A DNA stretch of 64,000 bases from Rhodoferax sp. (GTDB lineage Bacteria > Pseudomonadota > Gammaproteobacteria > Burkholderiales > Burkholderiaceae_C). Position numbers and translations under genes: made by a program. Where the stretch lies: assembly GCF_028688795.1 (NCBI RefSeq), contig NZ_JAQTXM010000014.1, positions 48,234-112,233 on the forward strand. Direction: 5' to 3'. This document shows positions 3,431 to 61,896 of this stretch, piece by piece. Under the pieces are notes generated by a model, which ran no database searches, was not told the DNA's origin, and was given only the letters and a program-made list of their open reading frames with translations. The first letter of the stretch is position 1, and every line of letters starts with the position of its first letter.

Positions 3431-3721
3431 TCAAATGGCTGAATTGAACTCACTTCGGCGCTGTACACCGCCTTCCAAAATCGATGAAGCCGTGACCGTC
3501 CCAGCGGCGTGACGCCGGTTATTGCAAACGTCATGACTGATAGCCAGGTTTTCCAAGTGGCTGTTGCCACCTTCGCTCAAGGGTTTGATGTGCTCCAGCG
3601 TCGCTGCGGCAGGGAACACATGCTCACCGCAAACCCAGCAGGGCACGACTCCGTGCATTTGCCGAGCAACCGTTTTATAAATTTTGTCGCGTGTGTGGGA
3701 TAGTTTGCTCACGACTAGCAA
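3431..3721 (-). CDS. Small HNH endonuclease
   Basis: CWVCGEHVFPAAATLEHIKPLSEGGNSHLENLAISHDVCNN contains CxxC, the H-N-H residues and a C-terminal C. It lies in a visibly lower-GC patch. An overlapping ORF in another frame (3319-3570) may be its frameshifted continuation. Confidence 0.7.
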   Translation of the reverse strand: MLVVSKLSHTRDKIYKTVARQMHGVVPCWVCGEHVFPAAATLEHIKPLSEGGNSHLENLAISHDVCNNRRHAAGTVTASSILEGGVQRRSEFNSAI

Positions 3722-3777
3722 TGTACATCACTGCATCGTCCTTCAGGCTGTCATTGACGCCCCCCTGACCGACCAAC

Positions 3778-4674: not shown

Positions 4675-4770
4675 GGGAGCATCAATTCGTTCTGGGTGGC
4701 TTCCACAACGCCGACGTGTACCGGCCATGGTCGGTGCACGTCGGCCCTACAGCACACACTCACTGCTTGC

Positions 4771-5607
4771 TTAGGGACAGGCACGCAATGTGTCATCGGG
4801 CAAACGGTCAATTTCTGCCAGCAGTTGGGCCAGTGCCTGCGCTGCCGAATTGACCATGGCGTGGCCTTTGTCAGCCGTGGCGTTGGCCGCGTTACCAACA
4901 GCGCCGGCCGGGTTGTAGTCTTGCATTTGCCAACCCAGCTTGGCGCTTTTGCCGTTGCCCAGAATGGCAAACTGCTGCGCCCGGTCTTGCGAGGTAGAGT
5001 GGAAATCTTGCGCCTTCGCCATGTCCACATGCGCGGGGTCAAGCGCCAGCATCATCGAGGTCTCGATGTCGCCGGCGTGAATGCCAAAGCGGTGCTCTTG
5101 TGGGCTGAACAGCGCGTTGACATCGCCGCCTTGGGCGTCCAGCAACGGCAGGTTGAACCAACTCACGCTGTACACCAGCATGTTCAGGCGGGCGCGCAGG
5201 TCACGCGCCACCAGGTCCATCACACCGACGTTGCCGCCGTGCGCATTAAACAGCACCAGTTTTTGGATGCCGCTGGCCGCCACGGACTCGGCAATGTCGG
5301 TCCAGAGACGGATCACGGTCTCGGTTTTCAGGCTCAGGGTGCCGGCAAAGCGCGCATGCTCCGGGCTCAGGCCCACGGCCTGGGTGGGCAAAAAAACCAC
5401 CTTCAAATCAGCGACCAAGAACGGCAAAGCGGCTTTCACAATGCCATCCATAAGCACCGTGTCGACACTCAGCGGCAGATGCGGGCCATGCTGCTCAATA
5501 GCGGCGACCGGCAGCACCGCAATGGTGTGTGCGGCATCACCACAAGCGCGTAAGCGCTCGAAGTCCATCGTGGTAAGGTCAGCCCAGAAGCGTGAAGATG
5601 GGGTCAT
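4771..5607 (-). CDS. Creatininase-family amidohydrolase
   Basis: VLPVAAIEQHGPHLPLSVDT, LVLFNAHGGN and FGIHAGDIETS motifs typical of the creatininase family. Confidence 0.85.
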   Translation of the reverse strand: MTPSSRFWADLTTMDFERLRACGDAAHTIAVLPVAAIEQHGPHLPLSVDTVLMDGIVKAALPFLVADLKVVFLPTQAVGLSPEHARFAGTLSLKTETVIRLWTDIAESVAASGIQKLVLFNAHGGNVGVMDLVARDLRARLNMLVYSVSWFNLPLLDAQGGDVNALFSPQEHRFGIHAGDIETSMMLALDPAHVDMAKAQDFHSTSQDRAQQFAILGNGKSAKLGWQMQDYNPAGAVGNAANATADKGHAMVNSAAQALAQLLAEIDRLPDDTLRACP

Positions 5608-5731
5608 CGTGGAACATCCGGTTTTAAGCCAACAAAACTGTCAGGAGAAACACAAGTGCCAGCTTGAAGAGAGGGCTTGAAGTGAAGACGGCCCATGCCC
5701 AGCGCTGGGGCAAAGATCACGCAATTAGGGC

Positions 5732-6543: not shown

Positions 6544-8706
6544 ATGACATTCAACACACGCTTGGCGCAGCGTTTCAACGCTCTATTTTTTATAGCTGCT
6601 TGCGCAATATCTACGGGGGCTATAGGCCAAAATTCCATAAATTATTTGGTCACCACCGAACAGGTGCGTGCCGAGTTGATGGCGCACGCGCCTGATGGCG
6701 TTGACCCTGGCAAAACTGTCTGGGTGGGTTTACAACTCGCTCACCAGCCACATTGGCACACTTACTGGAAAAACTCCGGCGACTCAGGCCAGCCCACCAC
6801 GCTGGAGTGGAAGTTGCCGCCCGGCGTGCTGGCCGGCGACATTGCCTGGCCGGTGCCACAAAAATTGCCAATTGGCAACCTGGCCAACTATGGTTATGAA
6901 GGCACGGTGTTGTTGCCCGTGCCACTCACCATCACGCCAGACTTCAAACCCTCCGCGTTAAGCCCCGAACTGGAAATCAAGCTGCAAGCCAGCTGGCTGG
7001 TGTGCAAACTTGAGTGTGTGCCGCAAGACGGTGAATTTGTGCTGCGGATTCCCGTGCGGAGCTCCACCGGCATCAACGGCGCACAGTTTGATGCCGCCTT
7101 CAAAGCCTCACCAAAACCACTCAAGGACGCTGGCAGCATCCAGATCAAAGACCACACCCTGTACGTCTCTGTGGCCGGCCTGCCCACCAGCCTGCAAGGT
7201 AAAATCCTGGATTTTTTCCCTGAAACCCCCGAGGTGATTGAAACCGCTGCCCAGTGGACACAAAGCTGGCAGGGCGCGGTGTGGACAGCGGCTGTGCCGA
7301 TCTCAAAGCAGCGCAGCGCCAGCCCGGAGGTGATGCCGCTGGTGCTGGCCGGCGTGGCCGGTAAAGAGCGCCTGGGCTTCACCGTACAGACCAAAGTCAG
7401 TGGCAACTGGCCGGCCATGGCTCCGCTGGGTGGCGCTGCAGCCACACCGGCTAACGTCAGCCCCTCTGCCGCCAGCGCGCCTGTCGGTGCTGCGGCAAAC
7501 CTGCCCACATCGCTCTGGCTGGCCCTGCTCGGTGCGCTCTTGGGCGGCATGATCCTAAACCTGATGCCCTGTGTGTTCCCAGTGCTGGCCATCAAGGTGG
7601 TGGGCTTTGCACGCCATGGCACCAACCAGCGCCGCCAGCGCGTGGGTGGGCTGGCCTACAGCGCGGGTGTGGTGCTGTCATTTGTCGCCTTGGGCGCGCT
7701 GATGCTTGCCTTGCGTGGCGCGGGCGAGCAACTGGGTTGGGGCTTTCAGCTGCAGTCACCCGCCGTGGTGGCGGCCCTGGCCGTGTTGTTCACCGTGATT
7801 GGGCTCAATTTGGCTGGTTTGTTTGAGTTTGGCCAATTTGTGCCCAGCAGCGTGGCCTTGCTGGAGGCAAAAAACCCGTCGGTGGATGCGTTTTTGTCGG
7901 GCATTCTGGCTGTGGTGATTGCCTCGCCCTGCACGGCGCCGTTCATGGGTGCCTCGCTTGGTTTGGCGCTGGCCTTGCCCGCCGCGCAGGCGCTGGCCAT
8001 TTTTGCAGCCATTGGTGTGGGTATGGCGCTGCCGTATCTGGCGGCCAGTTGGTCACCCGCGCTGGCCCGCCTGTTGCCGCGTCCCGGGGCCTGGATGGAC
8101 ACCTTCCGACACGCCATGGCGTTCCCGATGTTCGCCACCGTGGTCTGGTTGGTGTGGGTGTTGGGCCAGCAAAGCGGCATTGACGGGGCTACCGCCCTGC
8201 TGGCCTTGCTGCTGGCGCTGGCCCTGATGATCTGGGCGTTCGGCTTGCGCGGGCGTGGTCGCTTCTTTGTTGCTACTTTTTCAATAGCTGTTCTCGCACT
8301 ATTGACGGTTGCTATAGGCCAAAATGTCACTAAGCTTTCAGAAAATCCAGACACCGCTACCAGTACTGCACTGTGGCAACCTTGGGCGCCGGGCAAGGTG
8401 GACCAAGTGCTGGCCACGGGTGTGCCGGTGTTTGTGGATTTCACCGCCGCCTGGTGCGTGACTTGCCAGTACAACAAAAAAACCACCTTGGCCAATGCCG
8501 AGGTACTGGCCGACTTTGCCGCCAGAAAAGTCACCCTGTTGCGCGCCGACTGGACGCGCCGCGACCCGGCCATCACCGCTGCGCTGGCACAACTGGGACG
8601 CAACGGCGTGCCGGTGTATGTGCTGTACCAAACTGGCCGGGCACCCGTGGTTCTGTCCGAGATTTTGTCGGTCAGTGAAGTTCACAAGGCACTGGAAAGT
8701 TTGTAA
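6544..8706 (+). CDS. dsbD: DsbD-family protein-disulfide reductase (N-terminal periplasmic domain, membrane core, C-terminal thioredoxin)
   Basis: HWHTYWKNSGDSGQPT N-domain motif; membrane core with LMPCVFPVL and SPCTAPF cysteines; C-terminal VFVDFTAAWCVTCQ thioredoxin motif. Contains repeat copies A and B. Confidence 0.85.
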   Translation: MTFNTRLAQRFNALFFIAACAISTGAIGQNSINYLVTTEQVRAELMAHAPDGVDPGKTVWVGLQLAHQPHWHTYWKNSGDSGQPTTLEWKLPPGVLAGDIAWPVPQKLPIGNLANYGYEGTVLLPVPLTITPDFKPSALSPELEIKLQASWLVCKLECVPQDGEFVLRIPVRSSTGINGAQFDAAFKASPKPLKDAGSIQIKDHTLYVSVAGLPTSLQGKILDFFPETPEVIETAAQWTQSWQGAVWTAAVPISKQRSASPEVMPLVLAGVAGKERLGFTVQTKVSGNWPAMAPLGGAAATPANVSPSAASAPVGAAANLPTSLWLALLGALLGGMILNLMPCVFPVLAIKVVGFARHGTNQRRQRVGGLAYSAGVVLSFVALGALMLALRGAGEQLGWGFQLQSPAVVAALAVLFTVIGLNLAGLFEFGQFVPSSVALLEAKNPSVDAFLSGILAVVIASPCTAPFMGASLGLALALPAAQALAIFAAIGVGMALPYLAASWSPALARLLPRPGAWMDTFRHAMAFPMFATVVWLVWVLGQQSGIDGATALLALLLALALMIWAFGLRGRGRFFVATFSIAVLALLTVAIGQNVTKLSENPDTATSTALWQPWAPGKVDQVLATGVPVFVDFTAAWCVTCQYNKKTTLANAEVLADFAARKVTLLRADWTRRDPAITAALAQLGRNGVPVYVLYQTGRAPVVLSEILSVSEVHKALESL
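6580..6646 (+). repeat. Repeat copy A, sense, inside dsbD (signal-peptide region)
   Basis: GCTCTAttttttATAGCTGCTTGCGCaatatctacGGGGGCTATAGGCCaaaattccATAAATTatt. Peptide NALFFIAACAISTGAIGQNSINYL. Confidence 0.9.
8272..8330 (+). repeat. Repeat copy B, sense, inside dsbD (TM segment before the thioredoxin domain)
   Basis: GCTACtttttcaATAGCTGTTCTCGCactattgacGGTTGCTATAGGCCaaaatgtcac. Peptide VATFSIAVLALLTVAIGQNVT. Confidence 0.9.
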
Positions 8707-8790: not shown

Positions 8791-10584
8791 ATGGCCAAGC
8801 GTTCTTCTTTTCTTTTCAAGGCAGTTTTCATCCTGCTGGGTGCGTGCAGCTTTGGCCAAACACCAGTGCTTGCCAAAGAAGTTGTCATTGGTGTGTTTGC
8901 TTACCAGGGCGAACGCGAGTCGACCGCAGACTGGTCGCCCGTGCTCAGTTACCTCAATGGCGCATTGCCTACCTACCAGTTCCGTCTGGCTAATTTTGAT
9001 GCCGGCGGGCTGCGTGCGGCGATTGCGCAGCAGCGCGTGGACATGGTCATTACCAACCCCGGCTACTACGTCGCCATGGAGTATGAGTTCGGACTGAGCC
9101 GGATTGCCACCCTGACCTCACCGCAGGCCCTGTCCCCCGCCAAGGCGATTGGTTCGGTGGTCATTGTTCGCGCCGACCGAAGCGACTTAAAAGCGTTGTC
9201 AGATTTGAGTGGCAAACGCCTGGCCGCTGTGGCACCGCAGGCCTTTGGCGGCTATCTGGTGGTGGCGCGTGAGCTGCTGCGCCAAGGCATCGATCCGGAA
9301 TCCGACCTCAAGGAAATACGCTTTATGGGCTTGCCAATGACGCAAATCATTGCGGCCGTGCAAAGCGGTGCCGTAGATGCCGGGGTGATCCGCACCTGTC
9401 TGGCTGAACAACTGGCGCACCAGGGAGCACTCCGCATGGCAGACTTCCGGGTGCTGTCACCGCGCCACGAGGACGGTTTTGAGTGCGCCTTGTCGACACC
9501 GCTTTACCCTGACTGGCCGATTGCCGTCACCCGCACCACCGATCACAAGCTGGCCAAGCGGGTCGCCCGGGCACTCCTGGCGATGCCTGACACACCCGGC
9601 GGCCTGAGTTGGTCAGTGCCTGCAGACTACCAGCCGGTGCATGAGTTGTACCGCACACTTCGCATGGAACCCTACGCCTTCCTTCGGGAAAACACACCAA
9701 AAGCCTTGCTCCATCGCTTCTGGCCCTGGCTGCTGGGCTTTTTGCTGGTGTTGGTGGCCTGGGCCATCCACACCTTTCGGGTTGACAAGCTGGTGCTACG
9801 CCGAACGGCACAACTGCGTGAGTCACTGAATGCCCGCGAAGCCGCTGAAGCGCGCATGCGGGGCCATCAGGAACAAATGGAGCACCTGTCGCGCCTGTCC
9901 ATCCTGGGTGAACTCTCCAGCAACCTGGCGCATGAGATAAACCAGCCGCTCACCACCATCGGAAATTACGCGCGCAGCGTGTTGCGTCGTCAAGCCGATG
10001 GCCGACTGAGCCCTGAGGCGGTGTTGGAGGCCTGCACTGAAATTGACAACGAGGCGCAACGCGCCAGCGGCATCGTGCGACGCATTCGCCACTTTGCCCG
10101 CAAGCGCCCCGCGGTCCGCGAGCCGGTCGACGTGGCGCAACTGGCCGCCGAAGCACGTCGTTTGCTGCTGGGCATGCTGATGCACCCGCCCGCCATCCTC
10201 ATTGAAGACGTGACCGGCACGGGCTGCGACGTCTTGGCCGACGGGCCGCAGATTCAGCAGGTCTTGCTCAACCTGCTCAAAAATGCCATCGATGCCGGTC
10301 GCGACCTGCCCACTGAGCGCCAGGGTATTTTTCTGCGCATCGAAAGCGTAGAAAATCGGCAACTGGTGCATGTCATTGACCAGGGCTGTGGGCTGACGCC
10401 GGACGACCTGAGTCACCTGTTTGAACCCTTTTTCACCACCAAGCCAGACGGCTTGGGGCTGGGCTTGCCGATCTGCAAAACCATCATCGAAGCACACGGC
10501 GGTCGCCTGTGGGCTGAGATGAACCCGCAAGGCCCCGGCATGTGTTTCTCTTTTTCCCTACCTTGCCATGTTACACCTGCCTGA
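8791..10584 (+). CDS. Sensor histidine kinase with periplasmic PhnD/TtrS-type solute-binding domain
   Basis: Signal peptide, then VVIGVFAYQGERESTADWSPVLSYLNGALPTYQFRL...VDMVITNPGYYV...RIATL (TtrS-like periplasmic domain). One TM, H-box SNLAHEINQPL, N/G boxes LLNLLKNAIDA and DQGCG...GLGLGLPICK. Confidence 0.85.
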   Translation: MAKRSSFLFKAVFILLGACSFGQTPVLAKEVVIGVFAYQGERESTADWSPVLSYLNGALPTYQFRLANFDAGGLRAAIAQQRVDMVITNPGYYVAMEYEFGLSRIATLTSPQALSPAKAIGSVVIVRADRSDLKALSDLSGKRLAAVAPQAFGGYLVVARELLRQGIDPESDLKEIRFMGLPMTQIIAAVQSGAVDAGVIRTCLAEQLAHQGALRMADFRVLSPRHEDGFECALSTPLYPDWPIAVTRTTDHKLAKRVARALLAMPDTPGGLSWSVPADYQPVHELYRTLRMEPYAFLRENTPKALLHRFWPWLLGFLLVLVAWAIHTFRVDKLVLRRTAQLRESLNAREAAEARMRGHQEQMEHLSRLSILGELSSNLAHEINQPLTTIGNYARSVLRRQADGRLSPEAVLEACTEIDNEAQRASGIVRRIRHFARKRPAVREPVDVAQLAAEARRLLLGMLMHPPAILIEDVTGTGCDVLADGPQIQQVLLNLLKNAIDAGRDLPTERQGIFLRIESVENRQLVHVIDQGCGLTPDDLSHLFEPFFTTKPDGLGLGLPICKTIIEAHGGRLWAEMNPQGPGMCFSFSLPCHVTPA

Positions 10585-11200: not shown

Positions 11201-11203
11201 GGC

Positions 11204-13427: not shown

Positions 13428-13453
13428 CAACCACGTTAACAAAAAGGTTAAGC

Positions 13454-13843: not shown

Positions 13844-13853
13844 GGAGCGCACC

Positions 13854-17126: not shown

Positions 17127-19310
17127 ATGACGCAAACGCCACCGCGCCTGGGCACCCTGACACCGGTGCTGGTGCATACCCCGGCCTACAGCCAAATGGC
17201 GGGTGCGCTGACCTATTTAAGCGACAGCCCCCTGCCCCCAGGCACCTTGGTGCGCGTGCCGCTGGGCCAACGCGAACTGCTGGGCGTGGTCTGGGACACC
17301 GCCCCACAAGATGGCGCAACTAGCCCGCTTGATCCGGCCAAATTGCGACCCATTGCCGCTGCGTTGGACGCCCTACCCCCTTTGAGCGCCAATTGGCGCG
17401 CCCTGATCAGCTTTGCTGCCAGCTACTACCAGCGTGCTACCGGTGAAGTGGCCTTGGCCGCCCTGCCGCCGCAGCTGCGCGACATGAGCAGTGTGCAACT
17501 GGCCCGCAAACTGAAAAAGCTGGCCAAAGCGGCGCATGTGCCAAGCAACCCAGCACACCGGCAAGACACCTCTGCTGGGCTCGCACAGGGGCTAAGTGCA
17601 GCACAAAGTGCTATTTATTCAATAGTGCTTAGCGCAGAGCAGACAGGGGCTATAAGTCAATTTCATCAAAATTCTGGGCCGTTCCTGCTGTTTGGCGCCA
17701 CCGGCAGCGGCAAAACCGAGGTGTTTATGCAATGCACGGCTGAGTTGCTGGCCAATTCGCCCAACGCCCAAGCGCTGGTGATGGTGCCCGAGATCAACCT
17801 GACGCCGCAGCTTGAAGAGCGCTTCAAGGCACGTTTTTGCGCGCTGTATGGCGAAGACACCGTGGTGTCGATGCACAGCGGCATGACCCCGGCACAGCGC
17901 TTGAACAGTTGGCTGGCGGCGCACAGCGGGGCCGCACGCATTGTGCTGGGCACCCGCATGGCGGTGTTTGCATCCATGCCACAACTCAAACTGATCATCG
18001 TCGATGAGGAGCATGACCCCAGCTACAAAAGCAACGAAGGTGCCCGCTACTCGGCGCGTGACCTGGCCATTTACCGCGCCCGCCTGGAGGGCGCCAAAGT
18101 CATGCTGGGCTCGGCCACACCCTCGCTGGAAAGCTGGCACCACAGCCGCCCAGCCGCAGAGGGCGGACGCTATATGCGGCTGGACATGCCCAGCCGCGTT
18201 GGCAGTGGCCAGTTGCCCTTGGTGCGCCGGGTTGACATGAACCACCAGGCCAAATCGTGCGTGATTTCGCCTCCCTTGCTGGCGGCGATTGCCGAGCGAA
18301 TCGCCCGCGGTGAACAAAGCATGGTGTTCCTGAACCGGCGCGGCTATGCCCCGGTGCTGCAGTGCACCGACTGCGACTGGAAAAGTGAGTGCCCCAATTG
18401 CAGCGCCTACCGCGTCTTTCACAAAATTGACCGCACACTGCGTTGTCACCACTGCGGTTTTTCTGAACGCGTGCCACGCGCCTGCCCAGCCTGCGGCAAC
18501 CCTGACATTGCGCCGCTCGGGCGCGGCACCGAGCGCCTTGAGGAACACTTGGCCGAATTGTTGACAGGGGTGCTGCGCCCCGACGGCCAGCCAGTGCGCA
18601 TTGTGCGTATTGATGCCGACACCACCCGCCTCAAAGGCGCCCTTGAATCGCAACTGGCCCAAGTGCACACGGGCGAGGTCGATGTGCTGGTGGGCACCCA
18701 AATGATCGCCAAGGGACACGACTTTCGCCGCATCACCCTGGTGGCCGCCGTCAACCCGGACAACGCCTTGTTTTCAAGCGATTTCCGGGCGCCTGAGCGC
18801 TTGTTCAGCCTGCTGATGCAGGCTGCAGGCCGGGCCGGGCGCGACTCGGCGGTGGCGGGCAGCAGTGAGATGTGGCTGCAAACCTTTCACCCCACACACC
18901 CCTTGTTTGAGGCTTTAAAAAAACATGACTACCCGGCCTTTGCGGCCTCGCAGCTCAAGGAGCGCCAGCAAGCGGCCATGCCACCGTTCAGCTTTCAGGC
19001 GCTGGTGCGCGCCGAGGCACGCACACAAGAAATTGCCCAAGGTTTTTTAAACCTGGCCAGCCAGGCAGCCGCTCAGCAAAGCGACACCGCAGCCCTGCTG
19101 GCCCACCTGACGCTCTATCCGGCTGTGCCCATGAGTATTGCCCGCATTGCCAACATCGAGCGTGCTCAGATGCTGGTGGAAAGCCCGTCACGCGCCGCGC
19201 TGCAGCGGTTTTTGACGGCTTGGCAAGGCGTGTTGCACAGCACCCGCCAATTGCCCGATTGCAAGGGTGTGATGCGCTGGGCGATTGATGTGGACCCGCT
19301 CAACATCTGA
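17127..19310 (+). CDS. priA: Primosomal replication-restart helicase PriA
   Basis: Walker A GATGSGKTEV, DEEH box, zinc-binding CxxC clusters (CTDCDWKSECPNCSAY...CHHCGFSERVPRACPACG), 727 aa. Contains repeat copy C. Confidence 0.95.
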   Translation: MTQTPPRLGTLTPVLVHTPAYSQMAGALTYLSDSPLPPGTLVRVPLGQRELLGVVWDTAPQDGATSPLDPAKLRPIAAALDALPPLSANWRALISFAASYYQRATGEVALAALPPQLRDMSSVQLARKLKKLAKAAHVPSNPAHRQDTSAGLAQGLSAAQSAIYSIVLSAEQTGAISQFHQNSGPFLLFGATGSGKTEVFMQCTAELLANSPNAQALVMVPEINLTPQLEERFKARFCALYGEDTVVSMHSGMTPAQRLNSWLAAHSGAARIVLGTRMAVFASMPQLKLIIVDEEHDPSYKSNEGARYSARDLAIYRARLEGAKVMLGSATPSLESWHHSRPAAEGGRYMRLDMPSRVGSGQLPLVRRVDMNHQAKSCVISPPLLAAIAERIARGEQSMVFLNRRGYAPVLQCTDCDWKSECPNCSAYRVFHKIDRTLRCHHCGFSERVPRACPACGNPDIAPLGRGTERLEEHLAELLTGVLRPDGQPVRIVRIDADTTRLKGALESQLAQVHTGEVDVLVGTQMIAKGHDFRRITLVAAVNPDNALFSSDFRAPERLFSLLMQAAGRAGRDSAVAGSSEMWLQTFHPTHPLFEALKKHDYPAFAASQLKERQQAAMPPFSFQALVRAEARTQEIAQGFLNLASQAAAQQSDTAALLAHLTLYPAVPMSIARIANIERAQMLVESPSRAALQRFLTAWQGVLHSTRQLPDCKGVMRWAIDVDPLNI
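17610..17676 (+). repeat. Repeat copy C, sense, inside priA
   Basis: GCTAtttattcaATAGTGCTTAGCGCagagcagacAGGGGCTATAAGTCaatttcatcaaaattct. Peptide SAIYSIVLSAEQTGAISQFHQNS. Confidence 0.85.
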
Positions 19311-22646: not shown

Positions 22647-22671
22647 ACAAGCAACTACAGTCACCTCCAAT

Positions 22672-22739
22672 GCTACTTAATAAATAGCTACTTGCGCTCG
22701 CACTTCTTGGGCTAGAAGCCGTTTTTTCATACAAAGAAC
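22672..22739 (+). repeat. Repeat copy D, antisense, overlapping the 3' end and stop codon of the PIN gene
   Basis: GCTACttaataaATAGCTACTTGCGCtcgcacttcttGGGCTAGAAGCCgttttttcatacaaagaac. On the gene strand: KKRLLAQEVRAQVAIY-stop. Confidence 0.85.
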
Positions 22740-24505: not shown

Positions 24506-26085
24506 AGTGATTTCCTTAGCGAAGCCGGCGCAATGCGCAGACCTTCGCGGTATTTCGCCACGGTGCGGCGGGCGCATTCAATGCCTTGTTCTTTGAGCAT
24601 CTCGGCAATCTGGTTGTCACTGAGCGGCTTGGCTGGGCTTTCAGCGCTCACAAACTGCTTGATCAAGGCGCGCACTGCCGTGCTGGACGCGTTACCGCCC
24701 GACTCGGTGCCCAGGCCTGAGCCAAAAAAATACTTCAGCTCGAAGGTGCCAAACGGTGTCGCCATGTATTTGGCCGTGGTGACGCGGCTGATGGTGGACT
24801 CATGCAGGCCCAACTCGTCGGCAATTTCTCGCAATACCAGTGGGCGCATGGCCAGTTCACCATGTACAAAAAAGCTCTTTTGCCGCTCCACAATGGCCGT
24901 GCTGACGCGCAGGATGGTGTCGAACCGCTGCTGGATGTTTTTGATGAACCAGCGCGCCTCTTGCAAGCGCTGCTGCAACGCCGCAAAGTTGGACGCATCG
25001 CTACCGCCGGCTTTGTGACCTTTGAGAGCGTTGGCGTAAATGTCATGCACCCGCAGGCGCGGCATGACCTCAGGGTTCAACCGCACCTGAAACTTGGCCT
25101 GGCCCGCTTGGCCGACCGGCACCACCAGCACATCGGGTACCACGATGTTGCGCTCCACGTCTACAAAACGCCGCCCCGGCTTGGGCTCCAGCCGGCCAAT
25201 CAGGGTGATGGCCGCGCGCACTTGCGCGTCGCTGGCGCCGCACAAAGGCACCAAATGCTTGATGTCACGCCGGGCCAGCAAGTCCATGGGTTGGGCGCAA
25301 ATGCGCAAAGCCACCCGCACGGTGTCAGCTTCAAAGTCGGGGTTGTTTTTGAGAGCTTTCAGCTGCAAGCTCAGACACTCGGCCAAACCGCGTGCGCCCA
25401 CCCCGGTGGGTTCCAGGTTTTGCAGCAGGCGCAAGCCCACCGTGAAGTGGTGCACCAGGTCGTCGATTTGCTCAAGATCATCACCTGCCAGACCACGCGC
25501 CAGATCAGCCAGGTCGTCTTCCAGGTAGCCATCGTCATTGAGCGACTCGATCAAAAACCGCAGTGCGGCATTGTCTTCTGCACTCAGCCTCAACGACAAG
25601 GCCTGGCGGTGCAAAAAGCTTTGCAGCGATTCCTGGTTGCGTGCCAACTCGGTGGCGTCCATCTCGTCGTCGCCACTGAGGTTGTTGCCTTTGGCGCGGG
25701 CTTCACCGCCCCACTCGCCATCATCTGGGCTCAGGCTAACGCTGCCGTCGCCCTCCCAACTCGGGCCATCATCTGCGGTCACCGAGCTTTCTTCAGAACT
25801 ATTTTCGCTTGTAGCCCTTGACTGGTAAGCGTCATCAGCTCCTGAATACGTAGCAGTCTCAAGCTCACGGTCGTTCGCCGTTACCGGCGTGTCGGACTGC
25901 GCCAAGCCAAACGACTCGCGCTCGGCCTCATCTGCCGTACGCTCCAAAAACGGGTTCTCGTCGAGCATCTGATCCACCTCGCTGCTGAGCTCCATGGTGG
26001 AAAGCTGCAGCAAGCGAATGGATTGTTGCAACTGGGGCGTGAGCGCCAGATGCTGCGAGGTGCGAAGGGAAAGACCTTGTTTCAT
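24502..26085 (-). CDS. rpoN: RNA polymerase sigma-54 factor
   Basis: Start MKQGLSLRTSQHLALTPQLQQSIRLLQLSTMELS (ATG 26085), acidic region II, C-terminal RpoN box ARRTVAKYR. Contains diverged repeat copy R in the acidic linker. Confidence 0.95.
   Translation of the reverse strand: MKQGLSLRTSQHLALTPQLQQSIRLLQLSTMELSSEVDQMLDENPFLERTADEAERESFGLAQSDTPVTANDRELETATYSGADDAYQSRATSENSSEESSVTADDGPSWEGDGSVSLSPDDGEWGGEARAKGNNLSGDDEMDATELARNQESLQSFLHRQALSLRLSAEDNAALRFLIESLNDDGYLEDDLADLARGLAGDDLEQIDDLVHHFTVGLRLLQNLEPTGVGARGLAECLSLQLKALKNNPDFEADTVRVALRICAQPMDLLARRDIKHLVPLCGASDAQVRAAITLIGRLEPKPGRRFVDVERNIVVPDVLVVPVGQAGQAKFQVRLNPEVMPRLRVHDIYANALKGHKAGGSDASNFAALQQRLQEARWFIKNIQQRFDTILRVSTAIVERQKSFFVHGELAMRPLVLREIADELGLHESTISRVTTAKYMATPFGTFELKYFFGSGLGTESGGNASSTAVRALIKQFVSAESPAKPLSDNQIAEMLKEQGIECARRTVAKYREGLRIAPASLRKSL
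25794..25854 (-). repeat. Repeat copy R (diverged), sense, inside the acidic linker of rpoN
   Basis: Gene strand: GCTACgtattcaGGAGCTGATGACGCttaccagtcaAGGGCTACAAGCgaaaatagttctg. About 65 % identical to copy L by hand alignment, same frame as the other sense copies. Peptide TATYSGADDAYQSRATSENSS. Confidence 0.5.
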
Positions 26086-32864: not shown

Positions 32865-33725
32865 TCAGGTGGCCTGAACCAAAGCGTCACGTCCCCGCAG
32901 CACCGTCACATGCGCTTGCTGCAAGGCATCGGCAAACGCGCTGCTGGCCAGGTAGGCAAACTCCTGCACACGTGCCACACCAATCTCATCGTCGGGCTCA
33001 GCGGCTTGCGCGGGGTGACACATCAGGATGGCGCCCGCCGGTGCGCGCGCCAGCCAGCCCGTCATCAATGCGGCGTAACGCTGCGGGCCACCCTCAAAGT
33101 TATATATGCCAAATAGGCCTCTAGAACTTATTAAATAAGCGCAAGCAGCTATTGATTCAAGAGCATTCGCACCCATGCCGGCAATCACCCGACTCTTCAG
33201 GTCGGCCATGCCCGGCGGCGCACGGGAGATGCGCAGATAAGGCTTGGTGCCTTGCGTGCCATAACGGCGCAGCAGCACTGCCACCAGCGCGTCGCGAATG
33301 CCGGCAAACTGCTGCACATGCTGGTGACCATCGACAAAGTCAGGCGGCGCTTGCCACTGAGCCTCAAACAGGTCGAGTTGATGGTCAATCACGTCGTGCG
33401 CCCGCGCCTCATCGAACCCGCCAAGCAGCGCACGACGCATGGCGCGCCCCAATGGCATGCCATGGCCCGCGGCGATGGCAAACGCGCTGGTCCAGTCCAG
33501 GTGCAGACCGACATCGATCTGCCCGCGCAATCCCTGCAGCAGGGCCACATCTTGCGCCCAGCGTGGCGACAACACCATGGCGCTGGTGGCACTCAGGCGC
33601 CCCAACTGTGCCAATTTGGCAATGCCCATGGAGGCGCTGGCGTTGACGGCAAAGTCGTCGGCGCAGACGATGATGCCGCGCACGTCAGCATCTTTGCCTG
33701 CCGCGACTTGCCCGGTTTCAACCAT
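32865..33725 (-). CDS. YdjC/ChbG/HpnK/NaxD-family carbohydrate deacetylase
   Basis: Start moved to MVETGQVAAGKDADVRGIIVCADDFAVNASASMGI (ATG 33725, overlapping the LysR stop). DDFG-like motif CADDFA, later HLDWT and VDGHQHVQ. Contains repeat copy E. Confidence 0.8.
   Translation of the reverse strand: MVETGQVAAGKDADVRGIIVCADDFAVNASASMGIAKLAQLGRLSATSAMVLSPRWAQDVALLQGLRGQIDVGLHLDWTSAFAIAAGHGMPLGRAMRRALLGGFDEARAHDVIDHQLDLFEAQWQAPPDFVDGHQHVQQFAGIRDALVAVLLRRYGTQGTKPYLRISRAPPGMADLKSRVIAGMGANALESIAACAYLISSRGLFGIYNFEGGPQRYAALMTGWLARAPAGAILMCHPAQAAEPDDEIGVARVQEFAYLASSAFADALQQAHVTVLRGRDALVQAT
33097..33164 (-). repeat. Repeat copy E, sense, inside the YdjC-type deacetylase gene
   Basis: Gene strand: GCTCttgaatcaATAGCTGCTTGCGCttatttaataagtTCTAGAGGCCtatttggcatatataac. 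Peptide NALESIAACAYLISSRGLFGIYN. Confidence 0.9.
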
Positions 33726-38994: not shown

Positions 38995-39001
38995 TTAATT
39001 T

Positions 39002-39068
39002 ACTACTAAATACATAGCTTCTAGCGCTTTGTTCATAAGGGCTAGAGGCTATTTTTATATATAAATAT
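39002..39068 (+). repeat. Repeat copy F, the only fully intergenic copy (glcB 3' flank); best-preserved hairpin
   Basis: ACTACtaaatacATAGCTTCTAGCGCtttgttcataaGGGCTAGAGGCTATttttatatataaatatc. Confidence 0.9.
39014..39056 (+). terminator. Intrinsic-terminator-like hairpin formed by repeat copy F, 20 nt after the glcB stop
   Basis: ATAGCTTCTAGCGC (39014-39027) / loop TTTGTTCATAA / GGGCTAGAGGCTAT (39039-39052): 12 Watson-Crick and 1 G-U of 14 positions, followed by TTTT. Confidence 0.5.
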
Positions 39069-47032: not shown

Positions 47033-48367
47033 TCAAGCTCGGACTTCACCCTCGCCCAGCACCACGTACTTGAGCGAGGTCAGGCCCTCAATACCGACCG
47101 GGCCGCGGGCGTGAAACTTGTCGGTAGAAATGCCGATTTCGGCCCCCAGGCCGTACTCGAAGCCATCGGCAAATCGGGTGCTGGTGTTGACCATGACACT
47201 GGCCGAATCGACCTCCCGCAAAAACTGTTGCGCATGCATGTGGTCACGCGTCAGGATGGCATCGGTGTGGTGGCTGGAATACTGGTTGATGTGCGCAATG
47301 GCTTCATCCACGCCGGCCACCACTTTGATGCTGATGATCGGCGCCAGGTATTCCTCAAACCAGTCCGCTTCTTGCGCCAGCACCAGCACTGGCGGCTTGA
47401 TTACTACATTTTCAATAGCTAATAGCGCTTTATCTACGGGGGCTAGAGGCCAATTTTCCTTAAGGATTTCCAGTGTCTCGGCATCACAACGCATCTCGAC
47501 ACCTTTGTCAGCATAGATTCGCCCAATCAGCGGCAAAAAATCTGCGGCCACGCCGCGCGCCACCAACAGGCTTTCGGTCGCGTTGCAGGGGCTGTATTTG
47601 CTGGTCTTGGCGTTGTCGGCCACCTTGACAGCCATGTCGATGTCGCACGGGTCGTCCACATAGGTGTGGCAATTGCCGTCCAGATGCTTGATGACCGGCA
47701 CCTTGGCATCACGGCTGATGCGCTCAATCAGTCCCTTGCCGCCGCGCGGAATGATCACATCCACATACTGCGGCATGGTGATGAGCTGGCCCACCACCTC
47801 ACGGTCGGTGGTTTGGACCAGTTGCACGGCGTTGGCTGGCAAACCTGATGCGGTGAGTGCCTGCTGCACCAGTTTGGCCAGCGCCTTGTTGGAGTCAATC
47901 GCTTCTGAGCCACCGCGCAGAATGCAGGCATTGCCGCTTTTGATGCTCAAGGACGCAGCCTCGATGGTGACGTTGGGTCGGCTCTCAAAGATCATGCCAA
48001 ACACGCCAATCGGCACGCGCATTTGCCCCACGCGGATGCCGCTGGGTTGCTGGCGCAGCGCGGTGATCTCGCCAATGATGTCGGCCATGGCGGCCAGTTG
48101 CTCGCAGCCCTGGGCACAGGTTTCGATCACTTTGGGCGTCAGCTTCAGGCGGTCCACCATTGGAGCGGCCAAGCCAGCCGCGATGGCGCGCTCAATGTCT
48201 TTGGCGTTGTCAAGCTGCAGCGCGTCCACGTTGGCACGCAGCAACTTTGCCAGGGTGCGCAAAGCTACATTTTTAGTAGCTGCTTGCGCCTTAGCCATAA
48301 GGGCTGAGGCCTGTTTTGCCTGCAAACCAAGGGTTTGGGCGTAGTCGGTGATGTTGAGTGCGTTCAT
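47033..48367 (-). CDS. proA: Gamma-glutamyl phosphate reductase
   Basis: Start [21 protein letters not shown] (ATG 48367). ...IFESRPNVT..., ...ILRGGSEA..., ...[10 protein letters not shown]..., ...HTDAILT..., ...[17 protein letters not shown]... Contains repeat copies G and H. Confidence 0.95.
47403..47470 (+). repeat. Repeat copy G, antisense, inside proA (apparent 17-codon insertion)
   Basis: ACTACattttcaATAGCTAATAGCGCtttatctacGGGGGCTAGAGGCCaattttccttaaggatttc. Gene strand peptide [19 protein letters not shown]. Confidence 0.9.
48254..48312 (+). repeat. Repeat copy H, antisense, inside the conserved N-terminal helix of proA (no length change)
   Basis: GCTACatttttaGTAGCTGCTTGCGCcttagccataaGGGCTGAGGCCtgttttgcc. 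About 78 % identical to copy F by hand alignment, same frame as copy G. Peptide [18 protein letters not shown]. Confidence 0.75.
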
Positions 48368-50692: not shown

Positions 50693-51937
50693 ATGAAGTT
50701 GACAAATGCCAGGGCGCGCAGGCGCATACACAGTGCAACACCGCCAACCAAAGTGACAATAATCACTCTATATTTGATAGCTGCTTGCACAATATCCACG
50801 GGCGCTACAGCCCATAATCTTATAAATTCTACAGCAGATGACAAGACCTCGGGTTGGCAGCGATGCAGCAGTCTGGGTGCCGACAGTGCGGCCCGTCTGA
50901 GCTGTTTTGACGCGTGGGCCGCACAACAAAGTGCGTCGATGCGCTTGGCATCTGAGCCAGCCTCGGCCAACAACCTGACCGCCGATGTTGGGCCACTCGC
51001 CGCCCCAACACCAGCCAAGGCACCGGCCGTGGCACCCGTGGTCATCACCATGACCGCACCCGAAGCGCACAACTGCAAGAACCCCATTTTTTCCGAACTC
51101 TCTCGCTTTTGGGAGCTGGAAGCCGGCAGCGACTGCGGCACCTTTGGCATTCGGGGCTACCACCCCATAGCTTTAAGCTGGATTGGTTCGGACAGTGTCA
51201 ACGAGCAGCCCACCTCACCCACGCCGGCCAACAACGCCACAAGCGCCCAGGCGTTCAAAACCACCGAAATGCGCATTGGTGTGTCGGTGCGCACCAAAAT
51301 TGCCCAGGGGCTGCTGACGCAAGACCAGCCACTCCAGCGCGATTCCTTGTGGTTTGGTTACTCGCAGCAGTCCAACTGGCAACTCTTCAGTGGCGATTTG
51401 TCACGCCCGTTTCGCACCACCGACCACGAGCCTGAGCTGATCTACATCTACCCGACCGATCTGGCGCTGCCCCTGGGTTGGCGCCTGCGCTACAGCGGCA
51501 TCAGCTTTAACCACCAGTCCAACGGCCAGCCCCTGCCGCTGTCCAGAAGCTGGAACCGCACGATTTTGATGGCCGGCATGGAAAAGGGAAACACCTTTCA
51601 TGTGCAGGGCAAGCTGTGGTACCGCACGCCTGATGGCGACGGCACCGATGACAACCCCGACATTGCCAACCTGATTGGCCGCGCCGAAGTGATGGGCTAC
51701 TGGAACGTCAACCCCGACAACGCGCTGAGCCTGACACTGCGCCACTCCTTGCGCGCCAATGCCAACGGTTCAACGCGCGTGGAATGGCTTAAGAAACTGG
51801 GCAGCAGCGGTTTTGTTGGCAGCAACAGCGGCCTGCGGCTTCACACGCAGCTGTTCTCAGGTTACGGCGACTCGCTGATTGACTACAACCGCCGACGCAC
51901 GGTGCTCAGTGTGGGTTTGAGTTTGGTGGATTGGTAA
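50693..51937 (+). CDS. pldA: Outer-membrane phospholipase A (OMPLA)
   Basis: Start MKLTNARARRR (ATG 50693). ...EPELIYIYP..., catalytic FNHQSNG, ...SWNR..., C-terminal beta-barrel ending ...GLSLVDW. Signal peptide encoded by repeat copy J. Confidence 0.85.
   Translation: MKLTNARARRRIHSATPPTKVTIITLYLIAACTISTGATAHNLINSTADDKTSGWQRCSSLGADSAARLSCFDAWAAQQSASMRLASEPASANNLTADVGPLAAPTPAKAPAVAPVVITMTAPEAHNCKNPIFSELSRFWELEAGSDCGTFGIRGYHPIALSWIGSDSVNEQPTSPTPANNATSAQAFKTTEMRIGVSVRTKIAQGLLTQDQPLQRDSLWFGYSQQSNWQLFSGDLSRPFRTTDHEPELIYIYPTDLALPLGWRLRYSGISFNHQSNGQPLPLSRSWNRTILMAGMEKGNTFHVQGKLWYRTPDGDGTDDNPDIANLIGRAEVMGYWNVNPDNALSLTLRHSLRANANGSTRVEWLKKLGSSGFVGSNSGLRLHTQLFSGYGDSLIDYNRRRTVLSVGLSLVDW
50766..50830 (+). 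repeat. Repeat copy J, sense, inside pldA (signal-peptide region)
   Basis: CTCTAtatttgATAGCTGCTTGCACaatatccacGGGCGCTACAGCCCataatcttATAAATTct. Peptide ITLYLIAACTISTGATAHNLINS. Confidence 0.9.
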
Positions 51938-57143: not shown

Positions 57144-59270
57144 CTACTGACCCAGTGGCCTGTTAGCCGAAGCCGGTGTGTCCGCGTTTCCCTTGATGTT
57201 GCCATTGGCAGGCAAGGCTGGGCCTGGCTTCAACTGAGCCGCAGGCAACACCGGCGCCTCGTTGATCGGCACCAGGCGGCTGGGCTCGGGCTGTGCGTCT
57301 TGCATGCCGCTTCGCATCAAGTCGTAGCGGTCCATGGAAAGCTTGTCGGTGGCGCGCGCGTCACGCACCACCACCGGGCGCAGGAACACCATCAGGTTGG
57401 TTTTTTTGCGGCTGCGGGTTTCGTTCTTGAACAAATTTCCAAACAGTGGCACGTCGCCCAGGCCGGGCACTTTTTCCTGGTTGCCAGCGTATTCGTCTTG
57501 CAGCAAGCCACCCAGCACCACGATAGCGCCATCTTCTACCAACACGTTGGACTCGATCGTGCGCTTGTTGGTGGTGGGGCCGTTGGGGGCATTCACGCTG
57601 GAGGCCAGCACATTGCTCACCTCTTGGTAAATGGCCATTTTGACGGTGCCGTTTTCGCTGATTTGCGGTTTGACCTTGAGCGTCAGACCAACGTCTTTAC
57701 GTTCAATGGTTTGAAACGGGTTGACGGTGCCAGTGCTGCTGCCAGTGTTGGTGAACTGGCCGGTGACGAAGGGCACGTTTTGGCCAATGACGATCTTGGC
57801 CTCTTCGTTGTCGAGCGTGAGCAAATTGGGCGTTGAGAGCACATTGCCAGAGCCAGAGTCTTCCAGAAAACGCGCCAGCAGGCCAAGCACATAGACGCCA
57901 TTGGTTTGCTGCACGGCACCAAAATTGAGTCCGCGCGCTGGCGCCACCCCGCCCGTGGCCGCCCCCGTGGCCAGACTGATGATGTTTTTGCCGCCGGTGC
58001 TGAAGTTGGTGCCCAGCAGGCCAATCACGCCATCACCGGCCTTGCCCAACGGTCCTTGCCACTGGATGCCAAACTCTGCCGCCTTCTCCACACTGACCTC
58101 AGCAATCAGGCTCTCCACAAACACCTGGGCACGCCGGGCGTCGAGCTTGTCAATGACCGCGCGAAGCTGGCGGTATTGCGGGTCGGGCGCGGTGATGATG
58201 AGCGAATTGGTGGCCACGTCGGCCTGAATTTGCCCGCCTGTGGTGGCGGCTTGCGCCGTGGCACCGGCAGCACCGCCCGGTGTTGCCGTGGCCGCAGCAG
58301 GTGCCGCACTGCCACTCAAGGCGGCGCGCAACGTGGTCGCCAGCTTGGTGGCATCGGCGTTTTTGAGGTACACCACATGCACGTTGCCCAATGCGTCGTT
58401 GTTGCTGCCTGCGTCCGGCTGGTCGAGCTTTTGAACGAGTGAGCGCACCAGCGCCAGTTGCGCCCCATTGGCAGCGCGCGCTATCAGTGCGTTGGAGCGG
58501 GGTTCGGCCACCAGCGTGGTCTTGAACGAGGTGTCGGCTGCACCGGCCGGGGCAGCGGCGGTGCTGGCACCCAGCAGCCTGAGTACCAGCGGCGCCAAAT
58601 CAGAGGCAATGGCGTGTTGCAGCGGAATCACCTCCACGTCGGTGGCATTGGCCACATCCATCGCCGCAATGATGCGCGACAGGCGGCGCAGGTTGTCACC
58701 GTAGTCAGTGATCACCAGGGAGTTGTTGCCAGGGTTGGCATTGATGGTGTTGTTGGGACTGATCAAGGGGCGCAGCACCGGCACCAGGTTATTGGCCGAC
58801 TCAAAATTGAGCTTGAAGATTTGCGTGGCAATCTGGTTGCTTCCAGGCAGCGTGCCGCTGTCGCCCTCTTGAATCGTCACGCCTGCACTTTGCAGCTTGG
58901 CCTCGGCCTCGGGCACCACCTTGTAAAGCCCGCCGGACTCCACCAGCGTGTAGCCCTGCAGGCGTAGCGCCGACACAAACTGGCCCAGGGCGGCCGCGCG
59001 GCTCACCGGCTTGTCGGTGACCAGAGTCAGCGTGCCCTTGACACGCGGGTCGACCACCACGTTGCGCCCGGTGATGCTGGCAAAAGTGCGCGCCACAGCT
59101 TCGATTTCAGCCCCCTGAAAATTCAGCGTGACGCCTTCACTGGCCTTGCCGGCAGCATTCGACTGCGCCCAAGAATTTATAGAAAAAAGGCCTGTAGCCC
59201 CCGTCAATAAAGCGCAAACAGCTATTGAAACAATAGTATGTTTAGAAGAAACAAAAATATGTTGTGGCAT
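57144..59270 (-). CDS. gspD: Type II secretion secretin GspD
   Basis: Start [11 protein letters not shown] (ATG 59270). N0-N3 domains, secretin domain (...[15 protein letters not shown]...). Signal peptide encoded by repeat copy K. Confidence 0.95.
59172..59237 (-). repeat. Repeat copy K, sense, inside gspD (signal-peptide region)
   Basis: Gene strand: ACTAttgtttcaATAGCTGTTTGCGCtttattgacGGGGGCTACAGGCCttttttctATAAATTct. Peptide [22 protein letters not shown]. Confidence 0.9.
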
Positions 59271-60616: not shown

Positions 60617-61896
60617 GGTTGGCCTCCCGCAGCCAGGAGCCATTGGTCGCCCTGCTCACTTGCGCGCAAGCCTGCCGCCTTTAGTTTGGCAATGACGGCG
60701 GCTGGGTCGCCCACCTCAGGGCCTTTCAAACGCAACTCATTTGATGCAAATTCAATAGCTACTACCGCATATTCTGCAGGGGCTACAGCCGAAAATGATG
60801 CCAACATACTCTCCAAATCAGTGCCAGCGGCAGCACCACTGGCGCGCTGCAAGGCGGCCACTTCACGCGCCATCTGCAAGGGTGCATCGACCACCACAGG
60901 CACTTTGGGAAAGGTCTCTAGCAGCACCGCGCGCACCACTTGACGTTTGGCATTCAACGTGGCTTGCTCACGCAGAGCCCAGGCGTTCAGGCCGACCAGG
61001 TTCACCAGCACGCCAGCCACCAACGCGCCACGCGCCACGCGCCACTGCGGCGCACGCAAAAAACTGGCAAACGCCTGGGTCACACGGGCCCAACGCCGGT
61101 CACGGTTGGCGTGAGCCAGGTCAAACTGGGCCAGATCCCACGGCGACTGCGCTGCTTGCAGCAAACGCTCGGTGTGCTGCAACAAGGTGACCGGGCGCTT
61201 GAACCAGGCTTCGGCGATGGCGGCCACGGCGGGCTCGGCCACCACTTGCGGCCAGGTTGGCTCGGCGTCTTGGGGCAACGTTTCACCCAACCACAGCAGT
61301 GCCGGCGCGGCCAGGGGTCCAACCAGTACGCCACCGAATGCCGGGCTGTCGGTGGCCGCTCCAGCGACTGCAGGCAAGCGCTGCAAGCCGGCCACACGCG
61401 GGTGATCGGCATCGCCGGTGACCACCACGGTACCCCGCAAACCATGTGGTGTGAACTCGGGCACGATACGCGCCACTTCATGCCCGGCTTGGGCCAGGGC
61501 ACTCAATGCGGCTTTGAGCCAAGCCCGGTCGCAGGCAGCCACCCAGACCAGCGCATCCGCTGTGGCCTGCGGCTGCAAGGCCAGATGCAATTGTGCCGGG
61601 TCGTCGAGTAACTGGTCTTCCAGCACACCCTCCAGAATGCTACGCAGCCGACTGCGGGCACGCTCACCGGCGAGGGTCCGCGGCACGCTGCCTGCGGGCA
61701 GCTTCACCTGGTGCCAGGACAGTGCCTGCGCAGGCACCAGCGCCACCACTTCGTCGTGCGCAGCGGGCAACAAGGCCAACGGCACGCTGGCGTGCGCGTG
61801 CACGGTGAGGCCATCGGTGCTGAGCACGTAGTCAAACAATGCAGCCGCATCTGCGCCGGCCGGGGGTAAGGTGATGATCAGGGTCGTCATGGGCAA
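60613..61896 (-). CDS. gspL: Type II secretion protein GspL
   Basis: 427 aa; cytoplasmic actin-like domain, mid TM (VAGVLVNLVGLNAW), periplasmic C-domain. 4-nt overlap with gspM. Contains repeat copy L. Confidence 0.85.
   Translation of the reverse strand: MPMTTLIITLPPAGADAAALFDYVLSTDGLTVHAHASVPLALLPAAHDEVVALVPAQALSWHQVKLPAGSVPRTLAGERARSRLRSILEGVLEDQLLDDPAQLHLALQPQATADALVWVAACDRAWLKAALSALAQAGHEVARIVPEFTPHGLRGTVVVTGDADHPRVAGLQRLPAVAGAATDSPAFGGVLVGPLAAPALLWLGETLPQDAEPTWPQVVAEPAVAAIAEAWFKRPVTLLQHTERLLQAAQSPWDLAQFDLAHANRDRRWARVTQAFASFLRAPQWRVARGALVAGVLVNLVGLNAWALREQATLNAKRQVVRAVLLETFPKVPVVVDAPLQMAREVAALQRASGAAAGTDLESMLASFSAVAPAEYAVVAIEFASNELRLKGPEVGDPAAVIAKLKAAGLRASEQGDQWLLAAGGQP
60745..60800 (+). 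repeat. Repeat copy L, antisense, inside gspL (periplasmic C-domain)
   Basis: tgcaaattcaATAGCTACTACCGCatattctgcAGGGGCTACAGCCgaaaatgatg. Gene strand peptide SFSAVAPAEYAVVAIEFAS. Confidence 0.85.

Follow-up and report, generated by a model that had tools for sequence, protein, structure and literature searches.

Copies of an interspersed repeat family encode the predicted signal-peptide core and eighth transmembrane helix of a DsbD-like protein in Rhodoferax

The stretch of DNA studied here (the window) covers 64,000 nt of a Rhodoferax sp. contig (NZ_JAQTXM010000014.1, positions 48,234 to 112,233) and includes dsbD, a gene for a DsbD/ScsB-like thiol:disulfide interchange protein. Two segments of this gene, copies A and B, are in-frame members of an AT-rich repeat family of about 66 nt that is dispersed through the window. 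Both are probably old and vertically inherited, at sites that are constrained as protein and as nucleotide sequence and that lose their element character in a coordinated manner. The gene and its two copies, of which B encodes the eighth predicted transmembrane (TM) helix, TM8, are located as follows (window coordinates):

6544..8706, forward strand: gene for the DsbD/ScsB-like thiol:disulfide interchange protein (720 aa), host of two repeat copies
6577..6641, forward strand: copy A, sense frame; h- and c-region of the predicted signal peptide, residues 12-33, NALFFIAACAISTGAIGQNSIN
8271..8333, forward strand: copy B, sense frame; TM8, residues 576-597, VATFSIAVLALLTVAIGQNVTK

Copies A and B align over 63 nt without a gap at 70% identity and have the exact 15-mer GCTATAGGCCAAAAT in common. 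Both form local dips in GC content (0.42-0.48 vs about 0.6-0.75 in the body of dsbD), and the GC content at third codon positions (GC3) is 0.26-0.38 in the copy segments vs 0.71 for the gene. The presence of two similar segments in dsbD, noticed in a first-pass annotation of the window (there at 6580-6646 and 8272-8330), is real: besides the identity between them, nhmmer retrieved A with E = 4.3e-15 and B with E = 2.2e-9 when its profile was derived from nine of the other copies in the window and neither A nor B contributed to it. Repeat search and alignment yielded at least 11 family members in the window and a profile search added a twelfth; the density of the family is about 1 per 5 kb. With leave-one-out profiles, E-values were 1.2e-15 for A and 7.3e-10 for B, and every one of the 11 seed copies was recovered (E from 1e-15 to 2.5e-5). 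That A and B belong to an interspersed repeat family, as the same annotation had assumed, is confirmed by these leave-one-out profiles and by a profile derived only from intergenic and antisense copies (A, 8e-11; B, 3e-6). Local triplet shuffles gave no match of 15 bits or more; the real window gave 12 matches of 20 bits or more and none between 10 and 20 bits. Each window copy is a distinct member of the repeat family and no artefact of base composition; chance or compositional similarity is ruled out by the independent, leave-one-out and non-coding-only profiles together with the shuffles. Four weak profile matches at 5-10 bits (0.9 expected from local shuffles) were also present in the window and may represent decayed or nascent copies. 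A scan of the whole window against Rfam matched no family at gathering score.

The broad family consensus, aattGCTATtaaTTTaATAGCTGCTTGCGCat.ttc.ACg.GGGCTAgAGgCC.ATTTgact.aaAAa. (~66 nt, AT-rich), contains stops in four of its six frames and is open in one sense and one antisense frame (FESNWPLAPVEYAQAAIKLIAI). Its sense peptide, ..ATxSIAACALSTGAxGQ.. (IAACALSTGA-type), is hydrophobic and rich in Ala and Ile, and the antisense peptide is of the PLAPV..AQAAIK type. Ten of the 12 window copies lie inside Pfam-confirmed genes, seven of them in sense and three in antisense orientation; the other two are intergenic. All seven sense copies use one shared frame, and so do all three antisense copies among themselves. 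This frame rule of the intragenic copies is explained by the consensus having only two stop-free frames.

The host protein of A and B contains the Pfam domains DsbD_N (residues 55-167, E = 4e-17), DsbD_TM (325-537, E = 2e-19), and, as the C-terminal thioredoxin-like domain, Thioredoxin_7 (611-695, E = 3e-19), all above gathering scores. Its cysteine motifs are readable as PCVFP in TM1, SPCTAP in TM4, and WCVTC, the CXXC of the thioredoxin-like domain. By hydropathy, the membrane core comprises eight hydrophobic segments, the eighth of which (574-592, KD 2.42) coincides with copy B. The even number of TM segments places both soluble DsbD domains in the periplasm, and TM8, encoded by copy B, carries the C-terminal thioredoxin domain there. 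At site A, the N-terminus reads MTFNTRLAQRF, a basic stretch, followed by NALFFIAACAISTG and by A-I-G and then Q, a layout compatible with the signal peptidase I rule; most orthologues have A-x-A and then Q at the aligned position.

The sense peptide includes IAAC, encoded at 6598-6609 within copy A and at 50784-50795 in a phospholipase A1 gene (PLA1); the corresponding motif at 59203-59214 on the reverse strand is I-A-V-C in GspD. In DsbD and PLA1 the motif fits a lipobox and lies at a plausible distance from the start, which may lead to mis-prediction as lipoproteins. Among DsbD orthologues, the lipobox-like Cys is variable and A-x-A|Q is conserved. The dsbD start codon is also kept among orthologues. 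Gene callers were seen to start downstream of the AT-rich repeat: in a complete Rhodoferax genome (L201), DsbD (3499-5724) is called from 3706 with 672 aa, and its ATG and repeat-encoded signal peptide lie about 48 residues before the called start.

Orthology was assessed with 80 aligned DsbD loci from Comamonadaceae genomes. The repeat profile matched in the same register at site A (residues 12-33) in 22 of the 80 orthologues and at site B (576-597) in 13 of them. The repeat-like lineages are labelled Rhodoferax, Candidatus Egaibacter, Hylemonella, Ramlibacter 2FC, Polaromonas, Albidiferax, and Acidovorax, among others. Across 480 kb of orthologue flanks, just 7 profile matches were found. 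Given the shared register in several genera, the earlier suggestion that the repeat had been recruited twice within this gene does not hold. Repeat-like orthologues retain rare AT-ending codons (e.g. GCT ACT TTT TCA ATA GCT ... GCT ATA GGC CAA AAT), whereas GC-rich codons specify a homologous peptide in the other orthologues (those from Ramlibacter, Variovorax, and Hydrogenophaga, and also L001 and L002, which are closest to the window). In a distance tree, repeat-like states were scattered across the whole DsbD clade. Variants specific to each site are common to genera (TGC GCA.TA TC. ACG at site A; CTC GC. ... TTG ACG at site B).

No length change was found at TM8 among the 80 orthologues, repeat-like or not, and the sole indel in its vicinity (a 3-aa insertion in L079) lies upstream of the copy, in the TM7-TM8 loop. 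Equal length in all 80, together with the homologous peptide that non-repeat orthologues encode in GC-rich codons, speaks against an insertion at TM8. This indel reading applies to site B; at site A, orthologous signal peptides vary in length, and the orthologues showed neither a second, displaced signal-peptide remnant nor a 22-codon length difference. In distant DsbD representatives (38-60% identity), a hydrophobic segment of unrelated sequence occupies the TM8 position. Probably, the TM8 coding sequence took on the form of the element in the ancestor of this Comamonadaceae DsbD clade, with its length unchanged, and many lineages would since have lost the DNA signature and kept the peptide.

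Syntenic 22-kb loci around priA, a gene with a further copy (see below), were taken from related genomes. In L201 (GC 57.2%), the profile matched at DsbD-A (E = 2e-12), at DsbD-B (8e-10), at the PriA site (8e-9), and at two more copies. In L202 (GC 58.8%) and L205 (GC 61.2%), all three sites have decayed with the peptides still recognisable (VLFFTVICALSTGASGQ and TTLSMATLAFLTGSIGQN), and the profile found zero family copies in 22 kb each. De novo repeat search recovered the family in L201 and detected no comparable family in the 22 kb of L202 or L205, ruling out a diverged subfamily there. GC pressure was likewise ruled out as the cause of loss: L202 has 58.8% GC vs 58.4% in the first 30 kb of the window, yet lost all three sites. 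Loss is thus coordinated, and this correlation of site states within genomes argues that something acting genome-wide maintains the element. As regards the family-lacking genomes, from which the first-pass annotation had expected a decision, they do not carry the same nucleotides at A and B; the DNA has decayed and the peptide was kept. In L201, L202, and L205, the interval between dsbD and priA contains a cluster of dihaem cytochrome (DHC), DUF1924, and cytochrome b genes as well as hemE. In the window (8791-17100), a sensor kinase gene directly follows dsbD, and gene order varies among close relatives.

Inside the copies, synonymous sites are conserved in repeat-bearing genomes. At positions where orthologues retain Ile, ATA codons were found in 27 of 28 cases at site A and in 24 of 33 at site B. 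In same-residue comparisons, the A/T-ending codons of the window gene were kept more often at site A (49%) and at site B (32%) than in the gene body (21%). Between the window and L013 (68% aa identity), the two segments show 82-86% DNA identity, but only 55-60% between the window and its closest relatives, L001 and L002 (82-84% aa identity; 79-80% DNA identity in the body). Where residues are identical, the same codon was used in 81% of cases inside vs 53% outside the elements for the window and L201 (DsbD and PriA; Fisher p = 8e-5) and in 84% vs 49% for the window and L013 (p = 9e-5). For the family-negative L202, the relation is reversed (36% inside vs 60% outside). In the PriA copy, 16 of 17 synonymous codons were kept. 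Since orthologous copies (A-A and B-B, 82-86%) are closer to each other than A is to B (70%) and have site-specific variants in common, this conservation is vertical and not due to homogenisation within genomes.

The remaining ten copies in the window are the following:

17607..17670, forward strand: priA copy, sense frame, QSAIYSIVLSAEQTGAISQFHQ; on the native L..EQ..A motif just before Walker A; leave-one-out E = 2.5e-5
22669..22732, forward strand: intergenic copy, sense orientation; 23 nt past the stop of an HD-domain gene (21498-22646)
25801..25856, reverse strand: rpoN copy, sense frame; in variable acidic region II; E = 2.6e-6, outside the seed alignment
33104..33167, reverse strand: copy in a YdjC-like gene, sense frame, ANALESIAACAYLISSRGLFGIY
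39000..39061, forward strand: intergenic copy, sense orientation; 6 nt past the malate synthase G stop; best hairpin of the window, followed by TTTTTAT
47400..47463, forward strand: proA copy, antisense in proA (47033-48367, reverse strand); leave-one-out E = 2.5e-15
48261..48324, forward strand: proA copy, antisense; on the native N-terminal helix, no indel; leave-one-out E = 1.1e-6
50763..50826, forward strand: phospholipase A1 copy, sense frame; probable signal peptide of the gene at 50693-51937, ITLYLIAACTISTGATAHN; leave-one-out E = 3.2e-10
59176..59239, reverse strand: GspD secretin copy, sense frame; signal peptide of the gene at 57144-59270 (reverse strand); leave-one-out E = 5e-15
60740..60802, forward strand: gspL copy, antisense in the gene at 60613-61896 (reverse strand); near the C-terminus of the periplasmic domain; leave-one-out E = 2e-7

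The identity of phospholipase A1 is based on a Pfam PLA1 match (136-411) and that of GspD on Secretin, Secretin_N, and N0. GspD homologues have either a repeat-type or a GC-type signal peptide of equal length; many database entries for GspD homologues (P0243-P0360) start past the signal peptide. The sense peptide forms the h-region of three signal peptides in the window (DsbD, GspD, and phospholipase A1) as well as TM8 of DsbD. To this extent, the view of the repeat peptide as a ready-made signal or TM helix stands. A role specific to topogenic helices is not supported, as the same element coincides, in the same frame, with native helices of the cytoplasmic proteins PriA, GcvP, and MurI, and antisense with the N-terminal helix of ProA.

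RNA folding of the 12 window copies was significant for two only, those at 39000 (-22.1 kcal/mol, z = -5.55) and 48261 (z = -2.51). A simple terminator scan made no call at the former, and scanning for promoters and terminators near dsbD and near the 39000 copy gave nothing specific. Both intergenic copies (39000 and 22669) lie just past stop codons; in view of the strong hairpin and T-run at 39000, the family may supply terminators.

Most of the intragenic copies that could be compared with homologues sit in place. The PriA segment is free of indels in 120 of 120 homologues, and the copy aligns with native Klebsiella PriA (4NL4; LRLNTEQATAVGAIH vs IVLSAEQTGAISQFH). The proA copy at 48261 aligns without gaps to Burkholderia ProA 4GHK (RRASRSIARASTAAKNAAL). 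Copies in metagenome loci behave similarly: in GcvP, there is a 1-aa gap relative to 9UZ6 and none relative to human GLDC, and in MurI just a 3-aa gap directly upstream of the copy. By contrast, the copy at 47400 does lengthen ProA, as a genuine in-frame insertion of 18-22 aa (16+2 residues vs Burkholderia 4GHK, 22 vs Thermotoga maritima 1O20), and a related metagenome locus has the same proA insertion (L096, 2589-2652, E = 2e-15). In RpoN, the copy is situated in a variable linker that is enlarged, acidic region II being about 36 residues longer than in Escherichia coli sigma-54. These insertion-or-in-place assignments cover DsbD site B, PriA, ProA, RpoN, GcvP, and MurI; for the YdjC-like protein and GspL, the PDB and Pfam comparisons were distant. 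The sites of in-place copies are those at which the native peptide was already similar to what the element encodes in one of its two open frames. Five further well-formed copies within open reading frames (L149 574-636, L135 4454-4513, L085 6479-6535, L160 457-515, and L171 1243-1298) have hosts that, read by eye, are a LuxR-type response regulator (linker), a SpoU-type methyltransferase, a TrpD-like protein, an ABC ATPase, and an acyl-CoA synthetase; several of these copies lie, again by eye, on native motifs such as LEALGV-type or a..a.eLL..vG.

The wider distribution of the family was surveyed by a pattern scan of metagenome contigs (120 loci, 880 kb), which gave 190 profile matches. A conservative context classifier, using codon scores trained on window genes, made no coding call for 71% of the assessable copies vs 36% of random windows and assigned at least 29% of the copies to genes; 40 of the 48 intragenic copies were in the two open frames. 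Intergenic copies were found in 11 convergent contexts and one divergent context. A conservation profile of the 66 copies outside ascertainment had its best blocks at TGCTA, TAGCT, GCGC, GGGCTA, and ATTT, none longer than 6 nt. Further signal-peptide-like sense copies were present in other genomes. The family thus sits mainly at the 3′ ends of genes, has a large intragenic minority, and is widespread in Comamonadaceae. In the papers searched, four exact element-core strings had no occurrence, and targeted searches (Comamonadaceae REP elements, signal-peptide-encoding repeats) returned no description of such a family.

Taken as old, vertically inherited members of the family, copies A and B are probably best explained as follows. 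At site A, the sense peptide would serve as hydrophobic core and cleavage region of a Sec signal peptide. At site B, element-type sequence would stand in place of a helix that every DsbD needs, with no added length, and this form would date to the ancestor of this Comamonadaceae DsbD clade. From then on, two constraints would act jointly on each site, one from protein topogenesis and one at the nucleotide level, the latter limited to genomes carrying the family. In lineages that lose the family, all sites would drop the DNA signature together and retain the peptide only. The nucleotide constraint could consist in recognition of the element DNA by a genome-encoded factor, and we favour a REP-like element with a cognate protein. 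Hydrophobic or Ala-rich helices would then be protein contexts that tolerate the element and not its purpose.

Several points weigh against this explanation. The cognate factor is a proposal, and to our knowledge no mechanism is described by which about 66 nt are replaced in place without an indel. As the 47400 copy in proA is a plain insertion beside in-place copies, two modes must coexist. Copies A and B fold no better than shuffles (z = +0.90 and z = -0.38), and a reader that depends on a hairpin would therefore not obviously see them. Ancestral presence followed by many decays is not strictly separable from recurrent in-register gains at pre-adapted sites. The term family-negative refers to 22-kb samples of two genomes, the context classifier failed to recognise 2 of the 10 window copies known to lie in genes, and the signal-peptide and TM assignments derive from hydropathy and rules. 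A conserved mRNA hairpin, also considered as an explanation of the coding copies, is ruled out by the folding of A and B.

The main alternative is a drive resembling that of uptake sequences, in which the motif is made in situ by point mutation, is kept by biased uptake and recombination of better-matching DNA, accumulates wherever its peptide is tolerated, and decays when the specificity is lost. It would account for the fact that most intragenic sites are free of indels and have fixed reading frames, for positions kept across genera with variants of their own, and for the genome-wide coordinated loss, and it resembles the coding-region uptake sequences described in PMC2817400. However, the motif extends over about 60 nt and no invariant stretch in it exceeds 6 nt, as opposed to cores of 9-12 nt in uptake sequences, its density is only about 1 per 5 kb, and a full-length insertion exists (proA 47400). 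Scores are bimodal with intermediates at 10-20 bits nearly absent, which also weakens graded evolution in situ more generally. Moreover, we know of no uptake specificity in Comamonadaceae. We regard such a drive as rather unlikely, though it fares best among the alternatives.

Less probable still is that this dsbD received two insertions of a mobile repeat, each of which created a new topogenic segment. In-frame insertion is within the reach of the family, as the copy at 47400 extends ProA by 18-22 aa over its Burkholderia and Thermotoga counterparts and the rpoN copy lies in an expanded linker, and the sense peptide is indeed hydrophobic. For site B, this is contradicted by the equal length of TM8 in 80 orthologues, including those without repeat-like DNA, and by the hydrophobic segment at this position in DsbD representatives of 38-60% identity; with a ninth helix, moreover, the thioredoxin domain would face the wrong compartment. 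The register of both sites is also shared across genera.

Concerted evolution, i.e. homogenisation of copies by gene conversion within a genome, could explain the 15-mer common to A and B, and many potential donor copies exist. It is nevertheless very unlikely: orthologous copies from different genera are closer than A is to B, site-specific variants are kept, and copies that are 60-85% alike are a poor substrate for recombination. No variants common to all copies of one genome and absent from the orthologous copies of its relatives were seen. Finally, it is scarcely credible that the similarity has no meaning at the DNA level and reflects rare AT-rich codons slowing translation for targeting, combined with similar hydrophobic peptides, for although signal peptides account for three of the window's seven sense copies and a TM helix for one more, and GC3 is low in the dsbD segments, this is contradicted by the non-exported hosts PriA, RpoN, ProA, GcvP, and MurI, by antisense and intergenic copies, by similarity over about 60 nt with E down to 1e-15, and by the synonymous codons kept in PriA.

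A bolder version of the preferred explanation, old in-frame family members under two constraints, can be put forward tentatively. In Comamonadaceae, a motif of about 66 nt might be written into coding DNA in place, leaving protein length as it was, wherever an Ala/Ile-rich helix tolerates one of its two open frames. A genome-wide, sequence-specific agent would then protect it from synonymous drift, and upon loss of this agent hundreds of sites would decay; the hosts that the motif favours would be signal peptides and TM helices such as those of DsbD, GspD, and OMPLA. Candidates for the agent would be a binding protein, a RAYT-like enzyme, or an uptake-type drive. If true, this would be a case of coevolution between repeats and proteome intermediate between insertions of Rickettsia palindromic elements (RPEs) and uptake sequences. 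Should the pattern hold genome-wide, a sizeable repeat family would for very long have occupied the same sequence as protein segments that are essential (signal peptides, a TM helix that sets topology, and the PriA helicase motif region), and protein parts across a bacterial family would have been shaped by a DNA-level agent, beyond protein function. Close relatives with and without the family offer a natural experiment for finding this agent by phylogenetic profiling. On the practical side, AT-rich copies can lead to truncated N-termini from gene callers, and IAAC can mimic a lipobox.

Among known systems, RPEs are insertions of 100-150 bp that add 30-50 residues. The present family is like them in consisting of short, dispersed, palindrome-containing repeats that lie in frame in genes, with the peptide being tolerated, and the 47400 copy in proA behaves exactly as an RPE would. 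In contrast to RPEs, the majority of intragenic copies leave protein length unchanged and coincide with native motifs, even with conserved ones, and the family is mainly intergenic. An insertion relative to orthologues lacking the copy, as is typical of RPEs, is found at proA 47400 only and is absent at site B.

The uptake signal sequences (USS) of Pasteurellaceae and the DNA uptake sequences (DUS) of Neisseriaceae share with the family, according to PMC2817400 and PMC2346458, coding motifs formed in situ, the lack of indels, preferred frames, tolerant peptides, and conserved orthologous positions, as well as intergenic copies that form hairpins after genes. Unlike USS and DUS, the family motif is about 60 nt long, degenerate, and without a long invariant core, is about five times less dense, and has few intermediates.

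Repetitive extragenic palindromic (REP) sequences and REPINs, together with RAYT, are short hairpin repeats at 3′ ends of genes that are vertically inherited, long-lived, and regarded as dependent on one factor encoded by the genome, as outlined in PMC3116915 and bioRxiv 10.1101/2022.05.22.493013. The present family, too, is located at 3′ ends, persists vertically, and seems to depend on a factor of the genome, and, by analogy, the coordinated decay in family-lacking genomes would fit the loss of a REP-type factor. REP sequences are extragenic by definition, unlike the family, of which at least 29% of copies are intragenic (10 of 12 in the window); furthermore, its consensus hairpin is imperfect and most copies have no significant fold. 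The family departs in one defining property from each system: insertion for RPEs, a short invariant core for uptake sequences, and extragenic location for REP sequences and REPINs.

With E. coli DsbD and Salmonella ScsB, the encoded protein shares the same three modules (a periplasmic N-domain, the membrane core, and a C-terminal thioredoxin-like domain with CXXC), eight TM segments, and cysteines in TM1 and TM4. Compared with these, the protein itself is ordinary, and the oddity lies in the DNA that encodes its signal peptide and TM8.

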